32,200 nucleotides of DNA from Patescibacteria group bacterium (GTDB lineage Bacteria; Patescibacteriota; Microgenomatia; JACPZF01). The DNA lies in the NCBI GenBank assembly GCA_023484305.1, contig JAMDAL010000001.1, positions 1-32,200 on the forward strand. Reading direction: 5' to 3'. Both the position numbers and the translations under genes were made by a program. Positions within the stretch are counted from its first letter, which is position 1; each line of letters begins with the position of its first letter. Under the pieces are notes generated by a model. It made no database searches. It was not told the DNA's origin and was given only the letters and a program-made list of their open reading frames with translations. Of the stretch, positions 12,355-31,240 are shown piece after piece.

Positions 12355-12383
12355 ATCATATAGCATGACAAATTAAATGTCAA
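12355..12383 (-). promoter_or_regulatory. Sigma70 promoter with palindromic operator
   Basis: TTGACA-17-TATGAT on the minus strand; TGACA-N7-TGTCA at 12366-12382 overlaps the -35. Confidence 0.75.
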
Positions 12384-13441
12384 GTCCTTGTACTGGTCCA
12401 GTACTTCTTGGACTCTAAGTCCTCCTTTAACATAAAAGCCATGGGTGTTAAGTAACCCAAGGCTTGGTGTGGTCTGACTGTATTGTAGTATAACAGATAA
12501 TTAATGAGTTTCTGGTTAAAACTGTGGATATCTTCAAGTTCTTCTGTGTGAGAGTCAACAAATTCCTCTTGAATGGTTCTGTTAAACCTTTCAATAAAAG
12601 CATTGGACTTAGGAGTATGAGGATAGGAAAAATAGTGGGTGATGTTCTTTCTTTTCAGGTAAGAATCAAGTTCTTTTTGAAATTCCAATCCGTTGTCAGT
12701 TTTAACTGCCTTGACTTTAAAAGGAGCTACTAGCTCCAGTTTTTGATAAAAGTCTAAGGCTATGGCACTACTGAGCCCTTTGTAGGAAAAGGCAAAAGAA
12801 AACTTGGAATAGACATCTAAACAAGTCAGAATATATCTTTTTAAACCCAAATCAAATCTGACGATGGTATCAATCTGAAGAAGCTCTCCTGGGCTTTTGG
12901 ACTTAAAGTTTTTGCTTACTCTGTCCTTGTGCCTTCTAATTCTTGTTTTTGCCCATTGAGAGCTGGCATCATGATAAACCCTGCCCAGTTTTAAATAACA
13001 CCAATGGTTTCTGTTAATGATCCTGCCTACTTTAGAAGCAGAAACTAAAGGTAAACCTTCTTTTTCACAGTAAGCATCCAGAAGTATTTTAATCTTTTGT
13101 TTACCAAACCTGCCATTGTGTAGTCTGAGGTTATGAATAAACTCTAGTATCTTTGAGTCTACCAACATCTTTCTAGTAGTTTTAGGTTTGGTTGATAAGG
13201 GGACTAAAGACATTAGGCTACCACCAGACTTTTTTAACTGTCTCTTCCACAAAAAGAGAGTACTTCTGCCTACTTGATAGGCCTCCTTAGTAGCAGTAAA
13301 ACCAAACTGATCATAGAAGGACAAAACTTTCATTCTGAACTTGGCCACATCACTAACAGAATATTGTTGAGAAGAAGAAAAATATTTCATGAGGGTAGCA
13401 TAGCCTACTACCCCTTTAAAAAGAAACCTGGTTTTGTCCAA
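12380..13441 (-). CDS. IS481-family DDE transposase (rve integrase core)
   Basis: HTH N-terminus; PGELLQIDT, KTDNGLEF, PKSNAFIERFNRT, YNTVRPHQAL. Start could be ATG 13390. Confidence 0.92.
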   Translation of the reverse strand: MDKTRFLFKGVVGYATLMKYFSSSQQYSVSDVAKFRMKVLSFYDQFGFTATKEAYQVGRSTLFLWKRQLKKSGGSLMSLVPLSTKPKTTRKMLVDSKILEFIHNLRLHNGRFGKQKIKILLDAYCEKEGLPLVSASKVGRIINRNHWCYLKLGRVYHDASSQWAKTRIRRHKDRVSKNFKSKSPGELLQIDTIVRFDLGLKRYILTCLDVYSKFSFAFSYKGLSSAIALDFYQKLELVAPFKVKAVKTDNGLEFQKELDSYLKRKNITHYFSYPHTPKSNAFIERFNRTIQEEFVDSHTEELEDIHSFNQKLINYLLYYNTVRPHQALGYLTPMAFMLKEDLESKKYWTSTRT

Positions 13442-13491: not shown

Positions 13492-13571
13492 ACCTCATCC
13501 CAACCTTCTCCTAAAAGGAGAAGGTATCTTTATTTTATACCCTCTCCTATCAGGAGAGGGTAGGGTGAGGT
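13492..13571. repeat. CCTCxCCC / CCCTCTCC..GGAGAGGG double-hairpin element, copy 1
   Basis: Terminal IR ACCTCATCC/GGGTGAGGT and two internal hairpins; related copy at 31682. Confidence 0.8.
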
Positions 13572-14259: not shown

Positions 14260-15465
14260 TTAAACAATTGTTAACCCCGGGTTGGCAGATATTTTCTTCC
14301 AGGAAACAGGGTGATAATTAAAAAATGCGCAGGAAGCAATATAAAAGGCATTGTCATTGCAAAGTTTAGGAGGCGGAATATACAGATAAATTTTAAATTT
14401 TAAATTTTTAATTTTTAATGAATTTTCAATTTCAAATTTTAATTTTTCTCTTAGTCTTTGATTGGCTGCCACTCCGCCACCCAGCAAAATAGTTTTTGGT
14501 TGATAAATTTCTGCAGCCTTAATAACTTTGGCCGTTAAAACATCAGTAATGGCTTCCTGAAGTTCATAGGAAACGGCATTAATTGTTTCATTGTTAAATT
14601 GTTTTATTGCTTTTAATTTTTCTACTTCCCGCATGACGGCCGTTTTTAAACCACTAAATGAAAAGTCTAAATTATCTTCGTTTATCAATGGCCTGGGCAA
14701 TCTAATTGTTGTCTGTTTTCTGTTATCTGTTATCTGTTGTGCCGCTGCGGCAATGGCCGGTCCCCCAAAATAACCATTTAATCCTAAAAGCCTGGCAGAT
14801 TTGTCAAAACATTCTCCGGCCGCATCGTCTCTGGTGCCGCCTAAATATTTTAATTGACCGTGGTTTTTCATTAACACCAAATCTGTGTGTCCGCCGGAAA
14901 CAACCAGACAGAGAGCTGGAAACTGGGGCAGGTTATTATTAATTTTTTCCTCTTTGTCATTCCCGCGAAAGCGGGAATCTATATGATAATTATTTTTATG
15001 GATTCCTGCCTGCGCAGGAACGACATTGGTATTAATCCAGTTGGCATAAATATGGCCGACCAGATGGTTAACCGGGACGATTGGTTTTTTCCAAACCAAG
15101 GCCAGCGTTTTGGCAGTTTCAACCCCGACCAAAAGAGAACCGATTAGGCCGGGACCAACAGTAACAGCAAGAGCGTCAATAGAATTATCGATATTACGAT
15201 ATTTCGATATTGCGATATTAGGCGCTTTTTCCTTATTTTTCCTAATATCATAATATCCTAGTATCCCGGCATTTTTTAAGGCTTCTTCAATCACCGGAAT
15301 AACGCATTTTACCTGTTCTCTGGCTGCTATCTCCGGAATTACCCCGCCGGTTTTTTGATGCAAATCTAGGGAAGAGGCAATAGTCTGAGAAATAATTTTG
15401 GTGCCGTTTTCCACTACGGCCGCAGCTGTTTCGTCACAGGAAGTTTCAAGAGCCAGAATACGCAT
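14260..15465 (-). CDS. tsaD: tRNA N6-threonylcarbamoyltransferase TsaD with in-frame repeat insertions
   Basis: LETSCDET, GPGLIGSL, NHLVGH, VSGGHT, DDAAGECFDK, FSFSGLKT, GGVAAN, DNA. Confidence 0.97.
   Translation of the reverse strand: MRILALETSCDETAAAVVENGTKIISQTIASSLDLHQKTGGVIPEIAAREQVKCVIPVIEEALKNAGILGYYDIRKNKEKAPNIAISKYRNIDNSIDALAVTVGPGLIGSLLVGVETAKTLALVWKKPIVPVNHLVGHIYANWINTNVVPAQAGIHKNNYHIDSRFRGNDKEEKINNNLPQFPALCLVVSGGHTDLVLMKNHGQLKYLGGTRDDAAGECFDKSARLLGLNGYFGGPAIAAAAQQITDNRKQTTIRLPRPLINEDNLDFSFSGLKTAVMREVEKLKAIKQFNNETINAVSYELQEAITDVLTAKVIKAAEIYQPKTILLGGGVAANQRLREKLKFEIENSLKIKNLKFKIYLYIPPPKLCNDNAFYIASCAFFNYHPVSWKKISANPGLTIV
14388..14446. repeat. AT-rich heptamer array inside tsaD (KLKFEIENSLKIKNLKFKI)
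   Basis: AATTTTA-like units; same family as 16063-16200. Confidence 0.75.
14581..14615. repeat. Octamer ATTGTT array inside tsaD (KAIKQFNNETI)
   Basis: ATTGTTTC ATTGTTAA ATTGTTTT ATTGCTTT. Confidence 0.7.
14706..14738. repeat. Heptamer CTGTTWW array inside tsaD (QQITDNRKQTT)
   Basis: CTGTTTT CTGTTAT CTGTTAT CTGTT; 19 bp identical to 18170-18188. Confidence 0.75.
14955..15025. repeat. TGTCATTCC palindromic element inside tsaD (VVPAQAGI...DSRFRGND)
   Basis: TGTCATTCCCGCGAAAGCGGGAATC...GATTCCTGCCTGCGCAGGAACGACA; contains ATTCCC-N8-GGGAAT; relatives at 18021 and 22341. Confidence 0.9.
15190..15266 (-). repeat. GATATT/AATATC bipartite octamer element inside tsaD (ILGYYD...ISKYRNI)
   Basis: 64/77 identical, ungapped, to 21103-21179. 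Confidence 0.9.
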
Positions 15466-15590
15466 AAATTTCTAATTGCCCTAATTTTTAATTAACCTAA
15501 ATAATTATTCAATAATAAAATTCCTAAAATTGCTTATTAAGAAAATAGAAATTATTTAGAAATTAGAATAATTAGGTTAATTAGTAATTT
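15466..15590. repeat. CTAATT/AATTAG bipartite array, intergenic
   Basis: Left arm of CTAATT units and right arm of AATTAG units; ends AAATTTCTAATT/AATTAGTAATTT. Confidence 0.7.
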
Positions 15591-16057
15591 TAATCTATTC
15601 CCAACAATTTAGTTAGTTCTGTTGTTGACGGCGTTTTAATTCTGGGAATAACTACTAGTTTTGCGCCCACCATTTTTGCCTGTTGTTGTTTTTTTTCTTT
15701 AATAGGATCGTCTTGAGTGGCAGTAATAACATCCGGTTTAACAGTTTTAATTAGGGCAGTGTAGTCGCTATCGCTATTTAGACCGGGTAGTAGCAAAACA
15801 AAATCCACCACGTCCAACCCCGCCAGCATTTCTGCCCGCTCGTTTTGATTGTGTATGGGCCTGTTTATTCCTTTTAAAGTTTTGGTTCTACTGTCAGATT
15901 CCAGGGCCACCAATAAAATATCTCCGGTTTTTTTGGCCTCTTTTAAAAACCGCAAATGGCCAATATGAAGAATATCAAAACAACCACCGCACAACACTAA
16001 CTTACGACCACTCTTTTTAATAAAGTCTAATTGATTTAAAGAAATTATTTTTGACAT
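15590..16057 (-). CDS. Cytidylyltransferase/adenylyltransferase family protein (RfaE domain II/TagD-like)
   Basis: GGCFDILHIGH, KGINRPI, ERAEML, STT. Confidence 0.88.
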   Translation of the reverse strand: MSKIISLNQLDFIKKSGRKLVLCGGCFDILHIGHLRFLKEAKKTGDILLVALESDSRTKTLKGINRPIHNQNERAEMLAGLDVVDFVLLLPGLNSDSDYTALIKTVKPDVITATQDDPIKEKKQQQAKMVGAKLVVIPRIKTPSTTELTKLLGID

Positions 16058-16062
16058 AAGCG

Positions 16063-16200
16063 TTTAATTTTTAATTTACAATTTTAAATTTTAAATGAAT
16101 TTCAAATGTCTGTTTTGCTACGCAAAATTCGCTTGCGAACAATTTTAAAAATTAAATCATTTAGATTTGATTTAAAATTAAAAATTTATAATTTAAAATT
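16063..16200. repeat. AT-rich bipartite heptamer element with nested mini-hairpins
   Basis: AATTTTA arm and TAAAATT arm around TTTTGCTACGCAAAA-TTCGCTTGCGAA. Confidence 0.75.
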
Positions 16201-17689
16201 ACTCTTTTATTCCCCTAAGATATACTGCCTGCCATGGTTGATAGTTGGAATAAAAAGTTTTCTGAAAAATAACCTGGCCGTTTCTTTCCACCTTATAATC
16301 AAAAGAAGCCTTGGCTCCCCAGGCGCTAAAATCAACCTGTTTGATTTCGCCTTTGGGCAAAGCCGGGTCGTCCTGATACAGGTCGGGCGGCGCAGGCGTT
16401 TGGTCCCAGACCACAGGCTTGGTTAAGGTTACATGGCGGTTGTCCTTTTGTCCATAAAGATCAAAGGTGAGCCGGTAGTTGGCGGTGTCGGTTATCGCCT
16501 GAACTAAAATATAATGTCCGGTGTCGTTTTTAATTTTCAAATCGTTGGTCGGGCTGTAAACTGTGGCATCAATTCCGGGCGGGCTGTCCTGTTCGTAGTA
16601 GCCGACGCGGTAAGCATGGGCCCAGCGTTCCACAATCGGCAGGCCGGCGTTAAGGGCAGAGCGAAAAAGGGTGGTGGAAACCTGGCAGACTCCGCCGCCG
16701 TCTCCCAAAATAGTTTTGCCGTCTTTAATAATATACGCCTGTTTATAGCCGGTAAAAGCAGAAATATCTCCAAGCGCCCGGTTAAACGAAAAAGTTTCTC
16801 CGGGAGCAATTAAAACGCCGTTTAAACGCGAAGCGGCCAGAGATATATTGTAAACCCGGTTTTCTATGGAATGATAAAAAGTGGAAGTTCCTGAACCGAT
16901 TAGTTCTTTGATGCCGTAATCGTTGGCGCGATCCGTGGTAATTTCCGGTTTAACCAAATTAACGGTTAAAGGGATATCAATTTCAGTTGGCGTTAAAGAC
17001 AGGGCTGTTAAGCCGTCGGCCTTTTTTCGGAAGGAATTTTCGCTTTCACTTTGATTTAATCTGCGGCCGTTTTTTGAGATTTGGAAGCTGACCACGCGGT
17101 TGTTTTCAAATCGGAATAAAGCGTTTTGCGGGGCGATATTAATTTGTCCGGCCAATAGTGTTAATATTTTTTGCAGTTGGTTTTGGTCATAGGAAACGGA
17201 CAAGGACAGTTGCAAGGGGTTTTTATTGGCAAATAATTTTAAGTATAAATCGGAAAAAAAATTGCCGCTTCTGCCCAACAGATAAGCCTGGTCGGAAAGC
17301 AGTTTTGCGTTATAACCCAAATTTAACTCTGCGGCGCTGGCAGTGGCGGCAAAATTTTCATAGCTGAAAGTAAGACGCAGATTTTTAAATTTATTGTTTT
17401 GGTCTATAAAATATTTTTGAACCTCCTGTGGGCTTTTTCCGCCCAAATCAACTCCGGCAATGGTTATGCCGGGATATACTTTGCCCTGGTATGTTTTTTC
17501 AAACGACAAATAGTAAAACAAAAAAAGAATAAAAAGGCCCAATATACAGCCGGCTAGAAAGAAGAAAACCAAAACACTCAAAGAGGTTTTTGTCTTTTGG
17601 GTTTTATCCTCATATATCAATCCTTCTTTTTCCCGGATAAGGGTTGAGCGCTGATATTTTTTTCGTCGGGGTTTTTTGCTTTTGGCCAT
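16199..17689 (-). CDS. VanW family protein with peptidoglycan-binding (PG_binding_4) region
   Basis: N-terminal TM; YPGITIAGVDLGG, PGETFSFN, GGGVCQVSTTLF, GIDATV; TGnTAAAAT 6 nt before the ATG. Confidence 0.92.
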   Translation of the reverse strand: MAKSKKPRRKKYQRSTLIREKEGLIYEDKTQKTKTSLSVLVFFFLAGCILGLFILFLFYYLSFEKTYQGKVYPGITIAGVDLGGKSPQEVQKYFIDQNNKFKNLRLTFSYENFAATASAAELNLGYNAKLLSDQAYLLGRSGNFFSDLYLKLFANKNPLQLSLSVSYDQNQLQKILTLLAGQINIAPQNALFRFENNRVVSFQISKNGRRLNQSESENSFRKKADGLTALSLTPTEIDIPLTVNLVKPEITTDRANDYGIKELIGSGTSTFYHSIENRVYNISLAASRLNGVLIAPGETFSFNRALGDISAFTGYKQAYIIKDGKTILGDGGGVCQVSTTLFRSALNAGLPIVERWAHAYRVGYYEQDSPPGIDATVYSPTNDLKIKNDTGHYILVQAITDTANYRLTFDLYGQKDNRHVTLTKPVVWDQTPAPPDLYQDDPALPKGEIKQVDFSAWGAKASFDYKVERNGQVIFQKTFYSNYQPWQAVYLRGIKE

Positions 17690-17735
17690 AGCTTAATTTT
17701 AACAGATAGAAGACCGGCGGCAAAATAATTTAAGC

Positions 17736-17903
17736 GGCACAAAATTTCGCGTACGCTACAGCTTGTGTCAGTTGTGTCTGGAAGATATTGATAAGAAGAA
17801 GTAAGCTGTGGGCAGAAAAATACAGGCATATACTTAGGGCTTGATGGCGCTATATAAAGATAAATAAAACTTTTTAATGCGTGAAGTTTTGTAAAAAATG
17901 CCA
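17736..17903 (+). ncRNA. Candidate structured RNA or folded element, family unknown
   Basis: 15-bp closing helix 17739-17753/17878-17892 plus internal helices; non-Watson-Crick positions are G-U on the + strand. Confidence 0.4.
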
Positions 17904-17979
17904 CAGCAAAAAATTATAAATATTAAAATTATAAATATTATGTATTTTATACCACAAAAAAACTATTTTGACTGACCCC

Positions 17980-18008
17980 TTGCACTTCTTGCTAATTTTT
18001 TCTAGACT
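17980..18008 (+). promoter_or_regulatory. Sigma70 promoter for the solute-binding protein
   Basis: TTGCAC-17-TAGACT. Confidence 0.6.
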
Positions 18009-18020
18009 GGAAATACCACT

Positions 18021-18151
18021 TGTCATTCCCGCGCAGGCGGGAATCTATATGAGTATTGTTCGAACAGCGAGAACTTCTCACTTTCTGCCTGTCCGGCAGG
18101 CAGGCGTTCGAAGAATATATTTATGGATTCCCGATTAGACCGGAAATGACA
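18021..18151. repeat. Three-layer nested palindromic element
   Basis: Outer TGTCATTCC..GGAAATGACA; middle TATTGTTCGA..GAGAACTTCTC..TCGAAGAATA (18054-18117); inner CTGCCTGTCCGGCAGGCAGG (18085-18104). Confidence 0.88.
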
Positions 18152-18160
18152 AATGTAAAA

Positions 18161-19489
18161 ATGAAAAAACTGTTTTCTGTTATCTGTTTACTGTTTTCTG
18201 TTTTTCTTCTTTCCGGATGTAATTTGCCGCTGGTGGGGCAGTTGGGCAGTCCGCAAAAAGTTACCCTGCAATATTGGGGCTTGTGGGAACAGCCGCAGGT
18301 TATACAGTCTCTTATTAACGATTATCAAAAGCTTCATCCCAACGTTACCGTAATTTATAAAAAAATGTCGCCGCAAAGCTACAGGGAAACCATTACCGCG
18401 CGTTTGGCCGAAGGCACCGGTCCGGATATTTTCCGCTTTCATAATACCTGGCTGGCGATGTTAAAAAACAATTTGAGTCCGGTGCCAAGTTCGGTAATGA
18501 GCGCGGCCCAAATGGACAGCAGTTTTTATCCCGTGGTGAAAAAAGATTTAAAAATCGGCAGCCAGTATTACGGCCTGCCTTTGGAAATTGATACTTTGGG
18601 GCTTTACATTAATACGGACATCTTAAATGCCGCCGGGGAAAAACCGCCGGCAACCTGGGAGGATTTTAAAAATTTGGCGCAAAAACTGACAGTCAAGGAC
18701 GCCGGCGGAAAAATTCTGACCGCCGGCGCGGCAATAGGTACAACCAATAATGTGGAACACTGGAGCGATATTTTAGGATTAATGATGCTGCAAAACGGTA
18801 CGGATATGAATAAAGTCGGCGCCACAGTTTTATCCGACGGCAGCAATGCCGGAGTTGACGCCTTAAATTATTATGTTTCCTTTGCCAAGGGCGACAGCCG
18901 GGTTTGGGACGATACGCTGGATAACTCCATGAATGCTTTTGCTTCCGGGAAAACCGCGATGTTTTTCGGTCCTTCCTGGGAAGCCTTTGATATTAAAACG
19001 CTTAATCCTTCCGTTAATTTTGAAGTGGTGCCGGTGCCGCAGCTTTCCGGAACCAATATCACCTGGGCCACATACTGGGTGGAAGGCGTTGCCCGGCGCA
19101 GCAAAAACCAGCAGGCTGCCTGGGATTTTCTTAAATTTTTATCCTCACAGGAAGAACTGAAAAAGTTTTACAGTCTGTCTTCAAATCTGCGGCTGTTTGG
19201 AGAACCCTATCCTTATATCAGCATGGCGTCTTTAATAAACAGCGATCCTATTGCCGGAGCTTTTGTCAAACAAGCCCCAAATGCCACATCCTGGTATTTG
19301 GCCTCGCGCACTTTTGATAACGGTTTAAACGACAAAATGATTGCCTATTTTGCCGATGCGGTTAACGGAGTTTATAAAGAGACAACTACGGCCAAAAGCG
19401 CCCTGGAAACCGCGGAAAAAGGGGTTAATGCTCTCTTGGTTCAGTATGGTCTAAGCTCCGGTAATGCCGGACAAGCTCCGAGCCAATAA
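18161..19489 (+). CDS. Extracellular solute-binding lipoprotein (sugar ABC, family 1)
   Basis: Start reassigned to MKKLFSV...LLSGC (lipobox); GPDIF, YGLPL, PPATWEDF, AWDFLKFL. Confidence 0.9.
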   Translation: MKKLFSVICLLFSVFLLSGCNLPLVGQLGSPQKVTLQYWGLWEQPQVIQSLINDYQKLHPNVTVIYKKMSPQSYRETITARLAEGTGPDIFRFHNTWLAMLKNNLSPVPSSVMSAAQMDSSFYPVVKKDLKIGSQYYGLPLEIDTLGLYINTDILNAAGEKPPATWEDFKNLAQKLTVKDAGGKILTAGAAIGTTNNVEHWSDILGLMMLQNGTDMNKVGATVLSDGSNAGVDALNYYVSFAKGDSRVWDDTLDNSMNAFASGKTAMFFGPSWEAFDIKTLNPSVNFEVVPVPQLSGTNITWATYWVEGVARRSKNQQAAWDFLKFLSSQEELKKFYSLSSNLRLFGEPYPYISMASLINSDPIAGAFVKQAPNATSWYLASRTFDNGLNDKMIAYFADAVNGVYKETTTAKSALETAEKGVNALLVQYGLSSGNAGQAPSQ

Positions 19490-20441
19490 TAACAAGAATA
19501 GATGCCAGAGGTACGGCAAAAATCGATCCCCAGACTCCGGCGACTTTTAAGCCGACCAAAAAAGACAAAAGGACCACCACAGGATGAATGCGCATAGCCC
19601 TGCCCCAAAGCTTGGTAGCCAAAATATTAAGTTCCACCTGCTGAATAATAAAAATAACAAAAGTCAGCCATAAGGCCGAAGGCAGCCCGAGCGTTAAACC
19701 GGCGATAAAAGGCGGCAAAAGGCCCAAAAGAGGGCCAATTATCGGGATAACTGTCAGTACCGCAGAAAGAAAGCCGGCCACCAGGGCAAAGGAGGGCACA
19801 AAAATCTGCAAAAATATAAAAACAATCAGCCCGAAAATAATTCCCAAAACCACCTGAACCCTGATAAATCCGGCAAAAGTGTTGTCAATAACGCCCCGGA
19901 AATACTCAACCTCTTTATGGTAATTGTTTGGTACAAGAAGCAAAAACCACTGCCAGATTTTTTGTTTGTCCAAAAGAAGATAAAAAGATAAAAATAAAAT
20001 AAAGAAAAAATAAAAAAGGAAAGATGCCACCCTGCCGGCAATGGTCACAGAATTTTCCAGAACCGAAAAACTGACGTCCAGAATTCTGTTGGCCCAGCCC
20101 GGAATGTAGCGGTTAAAAGTGGGAGCCAGCGTAAGCAAATTGTTGATCTGGGCCACAATAATTGGCACGGCTAAAATAAACAGCCCAACAATAAAAACCG
20201 TAAAAACACCGTATATAACAAAAGCAGCGCCAAGACGGGAAACCCCCATTTTGATTAAACGCTCCAAAAGCGGTTCAAACAAAAAAGAAATAAGCCAGGA
20301 TAAAAGCAGGACCAGAATAATGTCAGAAAAAAGATAAAGAAACTTTAAAACATAACTGGCCAAAAACAGGGCCGCAACAACAGAAAGCATAATAGAGAGA
20401 AGACGCAGAGAACCGATTTGGTCAGATAAATTTTTAAACAT
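19425..20441 (-). CDS. AI-2E (UPF0118) family transporter
   Basis: Multi-TM; IPIIGP, QQVELNIL, IHPVVVL, GSIFAVP; start at ATG 20441. Confidence 0.9.
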   Translation of the reverse strand: MFKNLSDQIGSLRLLSIMLSVVAALFLASYVLKFLYLFSDIILVLLLSWLISFLFEPLLERLIKMGVSRLGAAFVIYGVFTVFIVGLFILAVPIIVAQINNLLTLAPTFNRYIPGWANRILDVSFSVLENSVTIAGRVASFLFYFFFILFLSFYLLLDKQKIWQWFLLLVPNNYHKEVEYFRGVIDNTFAGFIRVQVVLGIIFGLIVFIFLQIFVPSFALVAGFLSAVLTVIPIIGPLLGLLPPFIAGLTLGLPSALWLTFVIFIIQQVELNILATKLWGRAMRIHPVVVLLSFLVGLKVAGVWGSIFAVPLASILVIIGSELVRHYRSLDHTEPREH

Positions 20442-20448
20442 ACAACTT

Positions 20449-20458
20449 ATGCTATCAT
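20449..20458. promoter_or_regulatory. Overlapping back-to-back -10 hexamers
   Basis: TAGCAT (minus) and TATCAT (plus), each 7 nt before a divergent ATG. Confidence 0.6.
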
Positions 20459-20465
20459 ACGGATA

Positions 20466-21347
20466 ATGAAAATAACAAGCTCGCAAATTCTGGCAATTTT
20501 ATACGCGGATATTTTTGATTATCCGTTAAAAAAGGATGAGTTAGAAAGGTGGCAGATAAAAGATAGGTATAAAAATTATAATGATTATAACAATTATAAA
20601 GTTTATACTTATAAGAACGGTTATTTCTGCCCTTACGGCCGAGAAAAAATCATTAATCTTCGTCAGCAAAGAAAAAAATATTCACAGCAGAAAATTCATC
20701 TGGCAAAAAAAACTGTCCAACTCTTACAAAAAATTCCTTTTATAAAACTGGTTGCCATTACCGGTGCCTTATCTATGTATAACAGTCCGCAGGAGGACGA
20801 CATAGATTTATTAATTGTGACGGAAAAAAACCGTTTATGGATTTCCCGATTTTTAGTTTCCATTTTCTTAGATGTGTTAGGAAAAAGAAGAAGGCCAAAA
20901 GATACAAACTTTCAGGACAAAATTTGTCTAAATATGTTTTTAGAAGAATCAAAGCTGCAAATTCCCCGGAGAGAACAAAATTTATACACAGCCCACGAGG
21001 TTTGCCAGATTATGCCAATTTACAACAAACTGCAGACGTATGAAAAGTTTCTGTCGGCAAATAAATGGACGAAGAAGTATTTACCAAACGGAGTCGACAA
21101 TAGGATATTAGGATATTATGATACCAGGCGAAATAAAGATAAATCACGTATTATCGTAATATCGAAATATCATAATATCATCTTAGATTTTCTTGAATAC
21201 ACAGCCTATAAACTGCAGTATATTTATATGAAATCCAGAATGACCAGGGAAACAGTGGAAAGAAAAAGGGCATTCTTCCATCCTCTGGACAGAACCAATT
21301 GGGTTTTAAAAGAATTCAATAAGCGATTAAAAGAGATTAATTGGTAA
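20466..21347 (+). CDS. Nucleotidyltransferase-domain protein (pol-beta-like), with repeat insertions
   Basis: YADIFDYPL; ITGALS...DDIDLLIV; KICLNMF; LYTAHEV; terminal FFHP. Confidence 0.75.
   Translation: MKITSSQILAILYADIFDYPLKKDELERWQIKDRYKNYNDYNNYKVYTYKNGYFCPYGREKIINLRQQRKKYSQQKIHLAKKTVQLLQKIPFIKLVAITGALSMYNSPQEDDIDLLIVTEKNRLWISRFLVSIFLDVLGKRRRPKDTNFQDKICLNMFLEESKLQIPRREQNLYTAHEVCQIMPIYNKLQTYEKFLSANKWTKKYLPNGVDNRILGYYDTRRNKDKSRIIVISKYHNIILDFLEYTAYKLQYIYMKSRMTRETVERKRAFFHPLDRTNWVLKEFNKRLKEINW
20568..20614. repeat. Nonamer TTATAA array inside CDS (YKNYNDYNNYKVYTYK)
   Basis: TATAA recurring at 9-bp period. Confidence 0.65.
21103..21179 (+). repeat. GATATT/AATATC element, copy 2 (ILGYYD...ISKYHNI)
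   Basis: 64/77 identical to the tsaD copy. Confidence 0.9.
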
Positions 21348-22323: not shown

Positions 22324-22340
22324 AAATTATATTTTTACCT

Positions 22341-22459
22341 TGTCATTCCCGGCCAGGAGGGAATCTATGTTATTGTTCGAACCGCCAACTGGCGGTGAGA
22401 ACTTCTCGCCTTGGGCTCGAAGAATATTGGTATAGATTCCTGCCTTCGCAGGAATGACA
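22341..22459. repeat. Three-layer nested palindromic element
   Basis: Outer TGTCATTCC..GGAATGACA; middle 22371-22426; inner ACCGCCAACTGGCGGT (22381-22396). Confidence 0.88.
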
Positions 22460-27631: not shown

Positions 27632-27714
27632 ACACAGATTTAAACGGATGCAAAACTGATTTAAGCAGATATTTTTCTGTTTACATCTGCTTTTAATCCG
27701 CTTATATCTGTGTG
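27632..27714 (-). repeat. ACAGAT/ATCTG bipartite element, copy 1
   Basis: Reverse complement is 78/83 identical to 28888-28970. Confidence 0.92.
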
Positions 27715-27720
27715 AAAAAT

Positions 27721-28929
27721 ATGTTAAAAGGAACTAAATTAAAAGATTATCCTCATGCCCAAAAAAGACGGTTGTTTCTAGAGAAAACTTTGGGTATCAA
27801 CTTGTCTGGTTTGGGAGAATTTTCCTTTGCCGAGGATGCTGTTCGTAACAAAAATATTGAAAATTTAGTGGGAGCCACACAAATACCCATGGGTGTGGCA
27901 GGACCAATTCTTGTTAACGGTCAGTTTGCCAGAGGGGAGTTTTATTTACCTTTAGCCACAACAGAAGGGGCCTTGGTGGCTTCGGTTTCCCGCGGGTGCA
28001 AGGCAATTAGTCGGTCTGGCGGAGTAACAGTGTTAGTAGAAAATGTTGGTACTACCCGCGCCCCGGTTTTTCAGACCAAGGGAATTTCAGAAAGCAAAAA
28101 ATTAATTAAGTGGGTAGAAAATAATTTTTCCGCATTACAAAAGGTGGCAGAAAATTCTTCGTCACACCTTAAACTTTTAAACTTTAAACCATATTTTATG
28201 GGAAGAAACGTGTGGTTAAGACTTAACTTTGACACCGCTGATGCGATGGGTATGAATATGGCGACAACAGCTGCCACTCTAATAATACGTATTATCGAAG
28301 TAAAAACAGGATGCAAATGCGTTTCCGTATCCGGCAACTTAGATGTTGATAAAAAACCCAGCTGGATAAATTTTTTGGAAGGAAGAGGCAAAAAAGTTTG
28401 GGCAGAAGCTGTGATTTCTAGAGAAATAGCGCAGGAGGTTTTAAAAACCACTCCGGACAAGATGGTTGAAACAAGCAGGGCCAAAGTTTTATATGGTTCA
28501 ATTTTGTCCGGCTCTTTAGGTTTTAACAGTCACTTTGCCAACATTATTGCCGCCTTATTTGCCGCCACCGGTCAGGATTTGGCCCATATTACTGAAGGAA
28601 GTTTAGGCGTGACTACGACTGAAATTTCAGACAAAGATTTATATATCAGCATTTACTTGCCGGACTTAATGATAGGTACGGTGGGCGGGGGTACCGGCCT
28701 TCCTGCGCAAAAAGAAGCCCTGTCTTTGTTAAAAATACCAGATCCTTCTTTAAAAAGCGGTCAACAGGTTTTAAAACTGGCGGAAATTATTGGCTCTGCG
28801 GTTTTAGCAGGAGAGTTGTCCTTATTGGGTGCGCTTGCAGCAGGCCAGTTAGCCAGTGCACATGAAAAACTTGGTAGAGGCAGGATGCACACAGATATAA
28901 GCGGATTAAAAGCAGATGTAAACAGATAA
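27721..28929 (+). CDS. hmgA: HMG-CoA reductase, class I (NADPH)
   Basis: ENLVG, LATTEGALVAS, DAMGMN, GQDLAH, GTVGGGT, catalytic His in HEKLGR. Confidence 0.96.
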   Translation: MLKGTKLKDYPHAQKRRLFLEKTLGINLSGLGEFSFAEDAVRNKNIENLVGATQIPMGVAGPILVNGQFARGEFYLPLATTEGALVASVSRGCKAISRSGGVTVLVENVGTTRAPVFQTKGISESKKLIKWVENNFSALQKVAENSSSHLKLLNFKPYFMGRNVWLRLNFDTADAMGMNMATTAATLIIRIIEVKTGCKCVSVSGNLDVDKKPSWINFLEGRGKKVWAEAVISREIAQEVLKTTPDKMVETSRAKVLYGSILSGSLGFNSHFANIIAALFAATGQDLAHITEGSLGVTTTEISDKDLYISIYLPDLMIGTVGGGTGLPAQKEALSLLKIPDPSLKSGQQVLKLAEIIGSAVLAGELSLLGALAAGQLASAHEKLGRGRMHTDISGLKADVNR

Positions 28930-28970
28930 ATACCTGCTTAAATCAGTTTGTCATCTGTTTAAATCTGTGT
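28888..28970 (+). repeat. ACAGAT/ATCTG bipartite element, copy 2
   Basis: Overlaps the hmgA 3' end and supplies its stop codon. Confidence 0.92.
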
Positions 28971-30088: not shown

Positions 30089-31240
30089 ATGGCGATTACT
30101 GTTTTAGGCGCTTCTACCACTAATTTTGGTGAACTCTGGAATCAGAGTTTGCGCGATTTAATTAGAGAAGCCAGCCTCTTAGCCCTAAAAGATGCCAATT
30201 TAAGCCCCAAGGATGTGGAAGCGGTTTTTGTTGGCAATATGCTGTCAGGAATTTTAGGCAGTCAGGAACAATTAGGGCCGGTGGTAACAGAAGAGTTGGG
30301 CATAAATGTTTCTGCCACAAGGGTGGAGGCGGCTTGCGCCTCAGGGGGGCTGGCAATTTATGAAGCAGTTAACAGTTTATTGTCCCAAAGATTTACAACA
30401 GTTTTGGTCGTAGGCGCGGAAAAAATGACGGATAAACCAGCGGAAAAAATCACCAGCAGTTTAATGGCAGCCGGTTCTGATGCCGAAAGACAGGCCGGAG
30501 CGACTTTTCCCAGTTTGTATGCGCTTTTGGCCAAAGCGCATATGGAAAAATACGGGACCAGCGAAGAAGAAATGGCAGCCGTGGCAGTTAAAAATCACTA
30601 CCATGCTTCCTTAAACGGCCAGGCGCAGTTTCGCTTTTCCATTACCATAGAACAAGTTTTAAAAAGCACAAAAATTTGTGACCCCTTAAAACTTCTGGAC
30701 TGTTCGCCGATTACCGATGGGGCAGCAGCAGTGGTACTTACGTCAGAAAACAGTAAACAAAAAACAGTAAACAGGCATGTTTACATTAATGCTTGTGAGA
30801 CTGCAACCGATACTCTGGGTCTGGCGCAAAGAGAAAGTTTGACAGAGTTAAAAGCGACCAAACTGGCAGCAGAAAAGGCTTATAAAAAGGCCGGTGTCAC
30901 ACCCAAGGATATTGATGTGGCAGAACTTCATGACTGTTTTACTATTGCCGAGATTATGGCAGTTGAGGATTTAGGATTTTTTAAAAAAGGCGAAGCCGGA
31001 AAAAAATTTTTACAAGGAGAAACCAAATTGGGAAGCAAAGGCTTAATCACTAACACATCAGGGGGGCTCAAGGCCTGCGGGCATCCGGTGGGAGCAACCG
31101 GCATTAAACAAATTGCCGAGATTACCAAGCAGCTTAGGGGCAAAGCAGAGAAAAAACAAGTGGAAAATGCCAAGGTTGGGCTGTGTCAAAATGTAGGAGG
31201 GTCCGGCGCGACAGCAGTAGTTACTATTTTAACAAATTAA
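30089..31240 (+). CDS. Acetyl-CoA acetyltransferase (archaeal/SCP2-type thiolase)
   Basis: VEAACASGG, CSPITDGAAA, ELHDCF, SGGLKACGHPVGATG, NVGGSG. Confidence 0.95.
   Translation: MAITVLGASTTNFGELWNQSLRDLIREASLLALKDANLSPKDVEAVFVGNMLSGILGSQEQLGPVVTEELGINVSATRVEAACASGGLAIYEAVNSLLSQRFTTVLVVGAEKMTDKPAEKITSSLMAAGSDAERQAGATFPSLYALLAKAHMEKYGTSEEEMAAVAVKNHYHASLNGQAQFRFSITIEQVLKSTKICDPLKLLDCSPITDGAAAVVLTSENSKQKTVNRHVYINACETATDTLGLAQRESLTELKATKLAAEKAYKKAGVTPKDIDVAELHDCFTIAEIMAVEDLGFFKKGEAGKKFLQGETKLGSKGLITNTSGGLKACGHPVGATGIKQIAEITKQLRGKAEKKQVENAKVGLCQNVGGSGATAVVTILTN
30744..30774. repeat. Heptamer AACAG array inside thiolase (SENSKQKTVNR)
   Basis: CAGAAAA CAGTAAA CAAAAAA CAGTAAA CAG; same family as 14706 and 18170. 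Confidence 0.65.

Follow-up and report, generated by a model that had tools for sequence, protein, structure and literature searches.

The question raised by this locus is why two unrelated genes should carry the same insert of 77 nucleotides, read in the same frame. The window, by which we mean the whole stretch of 32,200 nucleotides analysed here (positions 1 to 32,200 of contig JAMDAL010000001.1, assembly GCA_023484305.1, from a Patescibacteria group bacterium), belongs to a genome of 723,085 bases in 54 contigs with 40% G+C that resembles those of the Candidate Phyla Radiation (CPR), and the genomes nearest to it are labelled Patescibacteria, Woesebacteria or Gottesmanbacteria. This genome is referred to as G000 and its contigs by C numbers; other G numbers denote further genomes and L numbers denote loci. 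One copy of the insert lies in tsaD (copy A, 15190-15266, minus strand) and the other in a gene for a conserved protein of no named family (copy B, 21103-21179, plus strand). We consider it probable that both belong to a family of small, non-autonomous palindromic repeats found in CPR/Patescibacteria-like bacteria, and that the shared frame is set by a filter of stop codons.

A preliminary description of the window had reported an ungapped match of 64 out of 77 positions between the two genes, and both its coordinates and its count were reproduced. Copy A matched copy B with an E value of 4e-8 in a blastn-short search of the whole 723,085-base genome and of 1.6e-17 in the search across genomes, and the pair, copy B being inverted relative to copy A, appeared in the repeat search of the window as 77-nt arms that are 83% complementary. 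Each copy consists of three GATAYTAN octamers, an A-rich spacer and four inverted units, NNAATATC. A covariance model, R1, built from nine copies, scored copy A at 87.6 bits (E 1e-15) and copy B at 97.2 bits (E 7.7e-18). The layout of octamers, spacer and inverted octamers had also been proposed to fold back on itself, and hairpins more stable than those of shuffled sequences were predicted for both copies: the sense strand gave -21.8 kcal/mol for copy A (z -3.06) and -18.9 kcal/mol for copy B (z -2.46), with values between -18.9 and -22.8 kcal/mol (z between -2.5 and -3.5) over both strands of each. Counted in the frames +0, +1, +2, -0, -1 and -2, copy A contains 1, 5, 0, 1, 1 and 2 stop codons and copy B contains 2, 4, 0, 2, 2 and 1; the sole open frame of the six is, in each copy, the frame actually used by the host gene, and the common peptide reads ILGYYD...ISKY.NI. 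The idea that the inverted copies are the ends of an invertible segment of 5.8 kb was rejected, because in G002 and G022, too, the two host genes are on opposite strands with 5-6 kb between them.

The gene holding copy A, a 401-amino-acid (aa) open reading frame (ORF) at 14260-15465 on the minus strand, encodes TsaD, tRNA N6-adenosine threonylcarbamoyltransferase (Pfam PF00814, E 5.2e-73, 246.4 bits against a cut-off of 24.8). The family is matched in three stretches, and the gene holds two in-frame inserts, namely the octamer element at residues 68-92 (ILGYYDIRKNKEKAPNIAISKYRNI) and, farther on, an unrelated double-hairpin element. In an AlphaFold2 model of TsaD computed with an alignment of 26 orthologues, the mean predicted local distance difference test score (pLDDT) was 86.4, and segments below 50 occurred only at residues 77-88 and 152-176, both in inserts. 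Copy B encodes residues 213-237 (ILGYYDTRRNKDKSRIIVISKYHNI) of a 293-aa protein (20466-21347, plus strand) whose gene is present in 36 of 41 relatives. This protein has no sequence match in Pfam, NCBIfam or PDB, and the best Foldseek rows for its structure are all Pol-beta-type nucleotidyltransferases (NTases); because these matches are weak (E 1.9e-3 to 0.1), a nucleotidyltransferase-like label is plausible but not firm, and we refer to the gene as the NTase-fold gene. Its AlphaFold2 model (pLDDT 88.7) has a single segment below 50, residues 223-229, within the element. On these predictions, the inserts in both window proteins would occupy loops that protrude from the fold without disturbing it.

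The second insert of tsaD (14954-15025, residues ~150-176), which corresponds to the second low-pLDDT loop of the model, is REPIN-like, with inverted G+C-rich hairpins (TCATTCCCGCG...CGGGAATC-like units) around an A+T-rich spacer, and reads in frame as PAQAGIHKNNYHIDSRFRGNDKEE. Further copies of this G+C-rich hairpin element lie in intergenic DNA at 18020-18063 and 22340-22459 and on contig C14.

A short-word BLAST search of G000 recovered further copies of the octamer element, so the window does not hold an isolated pair. A third full copy was found at C14:52299-52369 and a fourth, with a different spacer, at C50:19441-19525. A TatD gene (C34:24617-24647) contains a half-copy, of which only the left arm is present, and C16 has a scrap. 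The covariance model finds exactly four full places in G000: the two coding copies, the C14 copy and the C50 copy, which is intergenic and occupies the space separating two divergently oriented genes, of which one is gltX-like. In what would be the coding frame the C14 copy has a single stop, and it is located in the loop of stem III within a T-box-like leader (L001 7260-7478, minus strand) upstream of a valS gene encoding 779 aa (L001 4746-7085); the stretch from this leader to valS holds a copy of the G+C-rich hairpin element. Rfam RF00230 is matched over its full length by the leader, in which 57 nt are inserted into the stem III loop and a conserved box precedes a terminator-like stem, at 28.3 bits (E 5.2e-4), which does not reach the gathering score of 93, and the leader is called T-box-like for that reason. 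At the gathering score, Rfam detected no family in the window and four loci. Copies of the octamer element measure about 71-90 nt, with three to five octamers per arm and an A-rich spacer whose length varies between about 12 and 25 nt. What had been described as a discrete mobile unit of fixed length is therefore discrete and dispersed; the fixed length has to be given up, and its mobility we infer rather than demonstrate.

Coding copies in further genomes obey one rule of orientation and phase. All 17 distinct copies located within ORFs are read in the ILGY/ILRY frame of the model strand, and none was antisense. This number combines two sets of hits. In the first (genomes G022, G202, G228 and G037), 8 of 15 hits lay in ORFs of at least 100 aa, six of these in G022, and in the second 11 of 44 best-strand hits lay in ORFs of at least 120 aa, after exclusion of one hit cut by the end of a locus and the four weakest. 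Two hits of the second set repeat G022 copies and were counted once, the two window copies were added, and two weak hits were dropped, one with different units (G202:C38, E 1.3e-3) and the other a remnant in G037 (E 0.24), both of which nonetheless have the same strand and frame. The host genes are unrelated and of at least nine kinds, with TsaD, UvrD, topoisomerase I, 5'-3' exonuclease, RNase HII, GT4, FemAB, an RluA-type synthase and a TPR protein among their products; G022 alone has coding copies in the genes for TsaD, UvrD, 5'-3' exonuclease, topoisomerase I, the TPR protein and RNase HII. The insert would be translated as a Lys/Arg-rich loop of 25-30 residues (IL[GR]Y.D.K ... N I L/A I S Q/K Y P/R N I), and in one G022 copy (C10a) the right arm is read in another phase because the spacer is short.

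The pattern of stop codons accounts for this rule. The consensus of 32 copies places a TAA after the Tyr codon, and coding copies have lost it in various ways (TAT TAT, TAC TAC, TAT GAA, TAT AAA or GAG AAA), whereas in non-coding copies all six frames still contain stops. Closure of the remaining five frames therefore explains the strand and frame that coding copies share; stops in the other two same-strand frames had been offered as the explanation for the window pair, where all five are closed, and this explanation extends to all 17. The octamers would act as follows. Tandem GATAYTAN units, an A-rich spacer and inverted units would allow either strand to fold into a long hairpin, and copies are spread over housekeeping genes, non-coding DNA and a structured RNA leader. 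Stops made by the octamers themselves (TAA, TAG and TGA) close five of the six frames, such that an essential gene would survive only one strand and phase, with or after loss of the in-frame TAA or TAG at the octamer junction, and the surviving coding copies would be translated as a loop of 25-30 residues outside the protein fold.

The family is patchily distributed. BLAST with the 77-mer found matches in 7 of 401 genomes of the same GTDB class, the covariance model matched 4 of 41 relatives at E <= 1e-5, and 7 of 150 genomes in an even sample of the class carry the family (under stricter filters, with few candidates scored). Carrier genomes fall in several GTDB families, and the element was not matched in the three genomes of the family to which G000 belongs. 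Copy number per genome is low, from 4 to about 14 places: the covariance model found 8 places in G022 at E <= 1e-3, and 14, 6 and 5 places were counted from the covariance-model rows in G401, G402 and G403, each a genome of ~1 Mb. A pattern scan of 185,579 species genomes returned at least 118 stretches, and among the 80 loci listed 46 match the model, a proportion that is not independent evidence because the loci had been chosen by pattern. The listed records are titled Patescibacteria, Woesebacteria, Gottesmanbacteria, Doudnabacteria, Falkowbacteria, 'uncultured Gammaproteobacteria', Bacteroidota and a few others. Ten loci titled 'uncultured Gammaproteobacteria' (L098, L104, L110, L116, L119, L123, L135, L143, L155 and L159) come from genomes of ~1 Mb, and because their ORFs show blockwise matches to single G000 contigs, with identities of 26-69%, we read them as CPR relatives whose titles are probably wrong. 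G401, G402 and G403 are genomes of this kind. The spread across phyla hinted at by these labels is rejected for the ten loci tested.

Hairpins built from arrays of GATATTAG also occur in Bacteroidota (Saprospiraceae, Lewinellaceae and Chitinophagaceae; loci L127, L096, L149, L165, L173, L108 and L117), with unrelated spacers and, in the sample, in non-coding DNA throughout; a 5.1-Mb Saprospiraceae genome, G404, has 14 such places. These arrays may be either kin or convergent.

Empty sites exist among orthologues, and they were compared with filled ones, as the preliminary description had proposed, in tsaD and in the NTase-fold gene. TsaD carries the element in G000 and G022 only, at the same codon position, and 28 of 30 orthologue rows are without the insert; G000 TsaD minus its 25 element codons has the exact loop length of TsaD in G003, a genome of the same family. 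Filled sites of the NTase-fold gene were found in G000, in the genome of L116, in G007 (a model hit inside the orthologue) and in G037, where only the remnant noted above remains. We infer an origin by insertion.

Several observations nevertheless weigh against the proposed repeat family. Topoisomerase I, 5'-3' exonuclease, FemAB and GT4 (site 1) each have the same codon filled in two genomes, which brings to six the genes in which different genomes have the element at one and the same codon. Between G000 and G022 the tsaD elements are identical at 57 of 80 positions (71%), while the flanking coding DNA is identical at 105 of 150 (70%) and 108 of 159 (68%), and such equal divergence is as compatible with inserts that are old, inherited and no longer mobile as it is with insertion. 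No filled and empty pair was found at nucleotide resolution, and a metagenome scan for close TsaD relatives with an empty allele returned 165 pattern matches with no relative among them. Comparison of the 32 copies and their flanks disclosed no target-site duplication, common target motif or shared flank. Octamer arrays were absent beside Y1-transposase genes at the 9 loci examined, and the best NCBIfam match of these genes, the REP-associated tyrosine transposase (RAYT) NF047646, scores 34-55 bits, below its cut-off of 80. RNAalifold gave no consensus structure over the 32 copies, and hairpins are seen copy by copy only.

The main alternative is that the element is an old domesticated linker that entered a few housekeeping genes once, early in the class, and has since been inherited vertically, decaying slowly, mostly lost and immobile. 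Some coding copies may indeed be old and inherited, because several sit at the same codon in different genomes (in tsaD, the NTase-fold gene and the genes for topoisomerase I, 5'-3' exonuclease, FemAB and GT4). The equal divergence of the tsaD element and its flanks points the same way, and so do decayed remnants: the FemAB orthologue of G000 has a decayed right half (NTLSSYPNL, compared with NTLISQYPNI in G402), and decay is also seen in the G037 NTase-fold orthologue and in TatD of G000, where the left arm alone is left. The gene trees, however, speak against a single early entry. In a TsaD tree computed with the insert columns dropped, G000 groups with three empty genomes of its own family (SH-aLRT 99) and G022 with the empty G011, such that two changes are forced, and a topology with the two filled rows forced as sisters was rejected (delta lnL 44.6, p-AU 0.003); under a single gain, many losses precise to the codon would therefore be needed. 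The NTase-fold tree, although poorly resolved, requires four changes for the four filled rows, of which at least two are forced by supported branches. Copies also bear the mark of their genome. The junction base is G in 7 of 12 cases in G000 copies and in 4 of 74 elsewhere, and the window copies are closer to each other (64/77, 83%) than are the tsaD copies of G000 and G022 (57/80, 71%). On the side of descent, pairs from one genome are over all copies only slightly more alike than pairs from different genomes (0.68 against 0.63), and 13 of 36 copies have their nearest neighbour in their own genome. The existence of intact-armed non-coding copies, and the presence of the family in just 7 of the 150 sampled genomes but across several GTDB families, also count against a domesticated linker, which we regard as possible but doubtful. 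The history of the same-codon copies may be one of repeated entry at a preferred site, of one old entry followed by many codon-precise losses, or of an old entry combined with homogenisation within genomes.

If the repeat family does move, its genomes contain candidate enzymes. Genes for Y1 transposases (PF01797, above the cut-off) number five in G000 and ten in G022; those of G000 encode 211-253 aa (C18:4213-4857, C23, C50:16592-17353, C25 and C12:3046-3690; loci L217-L221), and each of these five has, on either side, a distinct hairpin of its own. The Y1 (HUH) family of REP-type transposases excises seamlessly. Transposition as single-stranded hairpin DNA would fit the octamer element because target duplications are absent and empty sites are clean, and we offer as a guess, with less confidence than we would give to an even chance, that it moves in this way through the RAYT-like Y1 enzymes of these genomes. 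No parent insertion sequence with the same ends was seen in the flanks of an integrase-core (rve) ORF and at nine Y1 loci, a check that did not extend to other transposase families. This ORF (353 aa, 12380-13441, minus strand; rve and rve_3) is an insertion-sequence transposase in the window, and its flanks hold short, unrelated hairpins at 13500-13560. A bolder form of the proposal is homing, in which the same codons of the same essential genes would be re-entered in separate CPR lineages, in one frame and seamlessly, by a single-stranded hairpin on which the multi-copy RAYT-like HUH transposases act, with clean exit possible. The rejection of the filled TsaD genes as sisters, the patchiness (7 of 150), the genome-specific signatures and the clean empty sites without duplication all fit homing; the equal divergence of the tsaD element and its flanks counts against it, and we hold it only tentatively.

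Folding bears on another alternative, namely that the element is a selected cis-acting site, either an array bound by protein or a regulatory mRNA hairpin, with the peptide as a by-product. All 32 copies fold individually (z -0.3 to -10.9), and the positions of the copy just upstream of genes in the C50 gap and of that in the riboswitch-like leader at C14 would suit such a role. Coding copies, however, fold more weakly than non-coding ones (mean -16.8 vs -23.3 kcal/mol, 16 copies each, Mann-Whitney p 0.001, the copies not being independent of one another), neither consensus structure nor covariation was found, the hosts and positions share no function, and most orthologues are without the element. 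A cis-acting site is therefore an improbable explanation.

Still less credible is convergent low complexity, by which octamer slippage and palindrome correction would have produced each locus separately, with no common origin. Arms of three to five units indicate that slippage acts within copies, hairpins of the same plan exist that are built from other units (for example, (AGGTTTC)x4 in the GT4 gene of G000), and the Bacteroidota arrays are similar with unrelated spacers. The spacers of the octamer element, however, are common to the copies, and for this reason local slippage and low complexity do not account for it; the earlier argument that slippage cannot copy a spacer between loci holds, the spacers being alike at 12-17 of 19-22 positions overall and, among the three closest copies of G000, at 13 of 19 between the window copies, 14 of 19 to the third copy and 12 of 19 in the remaining pair. 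Copies of one genome moreover have identical variant units at matching positions, and two or more perfect octamers in a row occur in the 723 kb of G000 at 5 loci only, every one a copy of the octamer element; the BLAST E value for the window pair is 4e-8. That the insert is not translated at all, because it is excised from the mRNA or the ribosome skips it (as in programmed translational jumping), has the hairpin itself and nothing more in its favour and can practically be set aside, as it gives no reason for 17 stop-free coding copies on one strand and in one frame against stops everywhere in non-coding copies. Selection on a translated insert would predict this single-frame, stop-free pattern, which argues against both excision from the message and ribosomal bypass.

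Among known systems, the closest kind to which the octamer family may be compared is the Rickettsia palindromic elements (RPEs). As summarised in PMC10969869 (after Ogata et al. 2000, 2002), RPEs are palindromic repeats of ~150 bp in ten families, with 44 insertions in R. conorii, of which almost half lie in frame within genes unrelated to one another; every family codes for a peptide that is conserved, and the protein folds are said to accommodate the inserts. Compared by description only, the octamer element is similar in being a dispersed, hairpin-forming palindrome of a reduced genome, in frame in unrelated housekeeping genes and coding there for a conserved peptide, with many copies in ORFs and non-coding copies too, without a known transposase and inserted at a place that tolerates it (here by prediction). 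It differs in its CPR-like host, its length of 71-90 nt rather than ~150 bp and its variable octamer-array arms, and further in having the same codon site filled in lineages that the gene tree separates. Because of the different host group, the shorter length and the octamer-array arms, we regard it by analogy as a counterpart of the RPEs and not as a member. In the literature searched, no paper on such elements in CPR/Patescibacteria was found, a result that leaves room for mention in the supplementary tables of CPR genome papers, and the octamer family appears to be new, working much as RPEs do.

Other short repeats resemble it in part. Repetitive extragenic palindromes (REPs), as PMC3733652 describes them, are extragenic, G+C-rich and 20-40 nt long, with a GTAG or CGTC tag. 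The likeness to the REP/REPIN-RAYT system (PMC3116915, PMC3733652) consists of short hairpin repeats without target duplication in genomes with RAYT-like Y1 genes; unlike REPs so described, the octamer element is A+T-rich, 71-90 nt long, tagless in the aligned copies, often intragenic and not beside the Y1 genes examined. Bacterial MITEs (miniature transposable elements with inverted repeats) such as ERIC, BOX and the Anabaena MITEs are described in PMC10969869 as small inverted-repeat elements that sometimes form in-frame fusions with host ORFs. The octamer element is similarly small and non-autonomous with terminal inverted repeats, its whole arms being inverted, but neither of two features of classical MITEs was found for it, a target-site duplication in the 32 copies or a parent insertion sequence with the same ends at the rve and Y1 loci inspected. 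Inverted repeats of up to 284 bp in the coding sequence of Nematomorpha mitochondrial genes, which are gene-specific (PMC6649704), are also long inverted repeats with both arms translated (a prediction in our case); unlike the octamer element, they are not described in that account as a family dispersed across genes and genomes.

Repeats of other kinds were observed in the same genes and genomes. In the GT4 gene of G000 (C19:8725-8800), (AGGTTTC)x4, an A-run and inverted units form a hairpin of -24.5 kcal/mol that reads in frame as LGFRFQVSGFSKKKLSKTSDLKP and occupies the very site at which G401 and the genome of L155 have the octamer element. The tsaD orthologues of G019 (L006) and G007 (L026) have peptides of their own at both TsaD loops, GKTVKKVTEITDYCSTD twice in the one and SNRFRI.SG..K...MTKQVQDD twice in the other, and because these genomes have their own repeats there, both loops can be considered hot spots for different repeat families. 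Arrays of the heptamer CTGTTWT lie at 14713-14738, within tsaD, and at 18170-18209 and 30744-30774 (92% and 90% matches), one of them read in frame in TsaD as ITDNRKQ, and the stretch SCHPEFVSGSRGMPKQVRHDN of ValS resembles another in-frame repeat. A palindromic repeat of 83 nt, again of another family, is present in two copies (94%) at 27632-27714 and 28888-28970 that bracket a 405-aa ORF (27712-28929), the second overlapping the last codons of the ORF.

These genomes generally have hairpin repeats within genes, and the octamer element is thus a clear case of this habit. A very small CPR/Patescibacteria genome nonetheless bears several families of such repeats in essential genes, which gives a concrete reason for the odd low-complexity inserts in many CPR proteins that disturb alignments, domain calls and phylogenies. 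The single-frame rule amounts to a natural experiment on what a protein loop and its mRNA will tolerate, and the copy in the T-box-like leader indicates that a structured RNA can absorb the same element. The filling of the same site across lineages provides a testable case of targeted insertion or of precise loss. If homing should prove true, the element would be a translated, site-specific selfish protein insert of ~80 nt, without an enzyme of its own and distributed like an intein or a homing intron.

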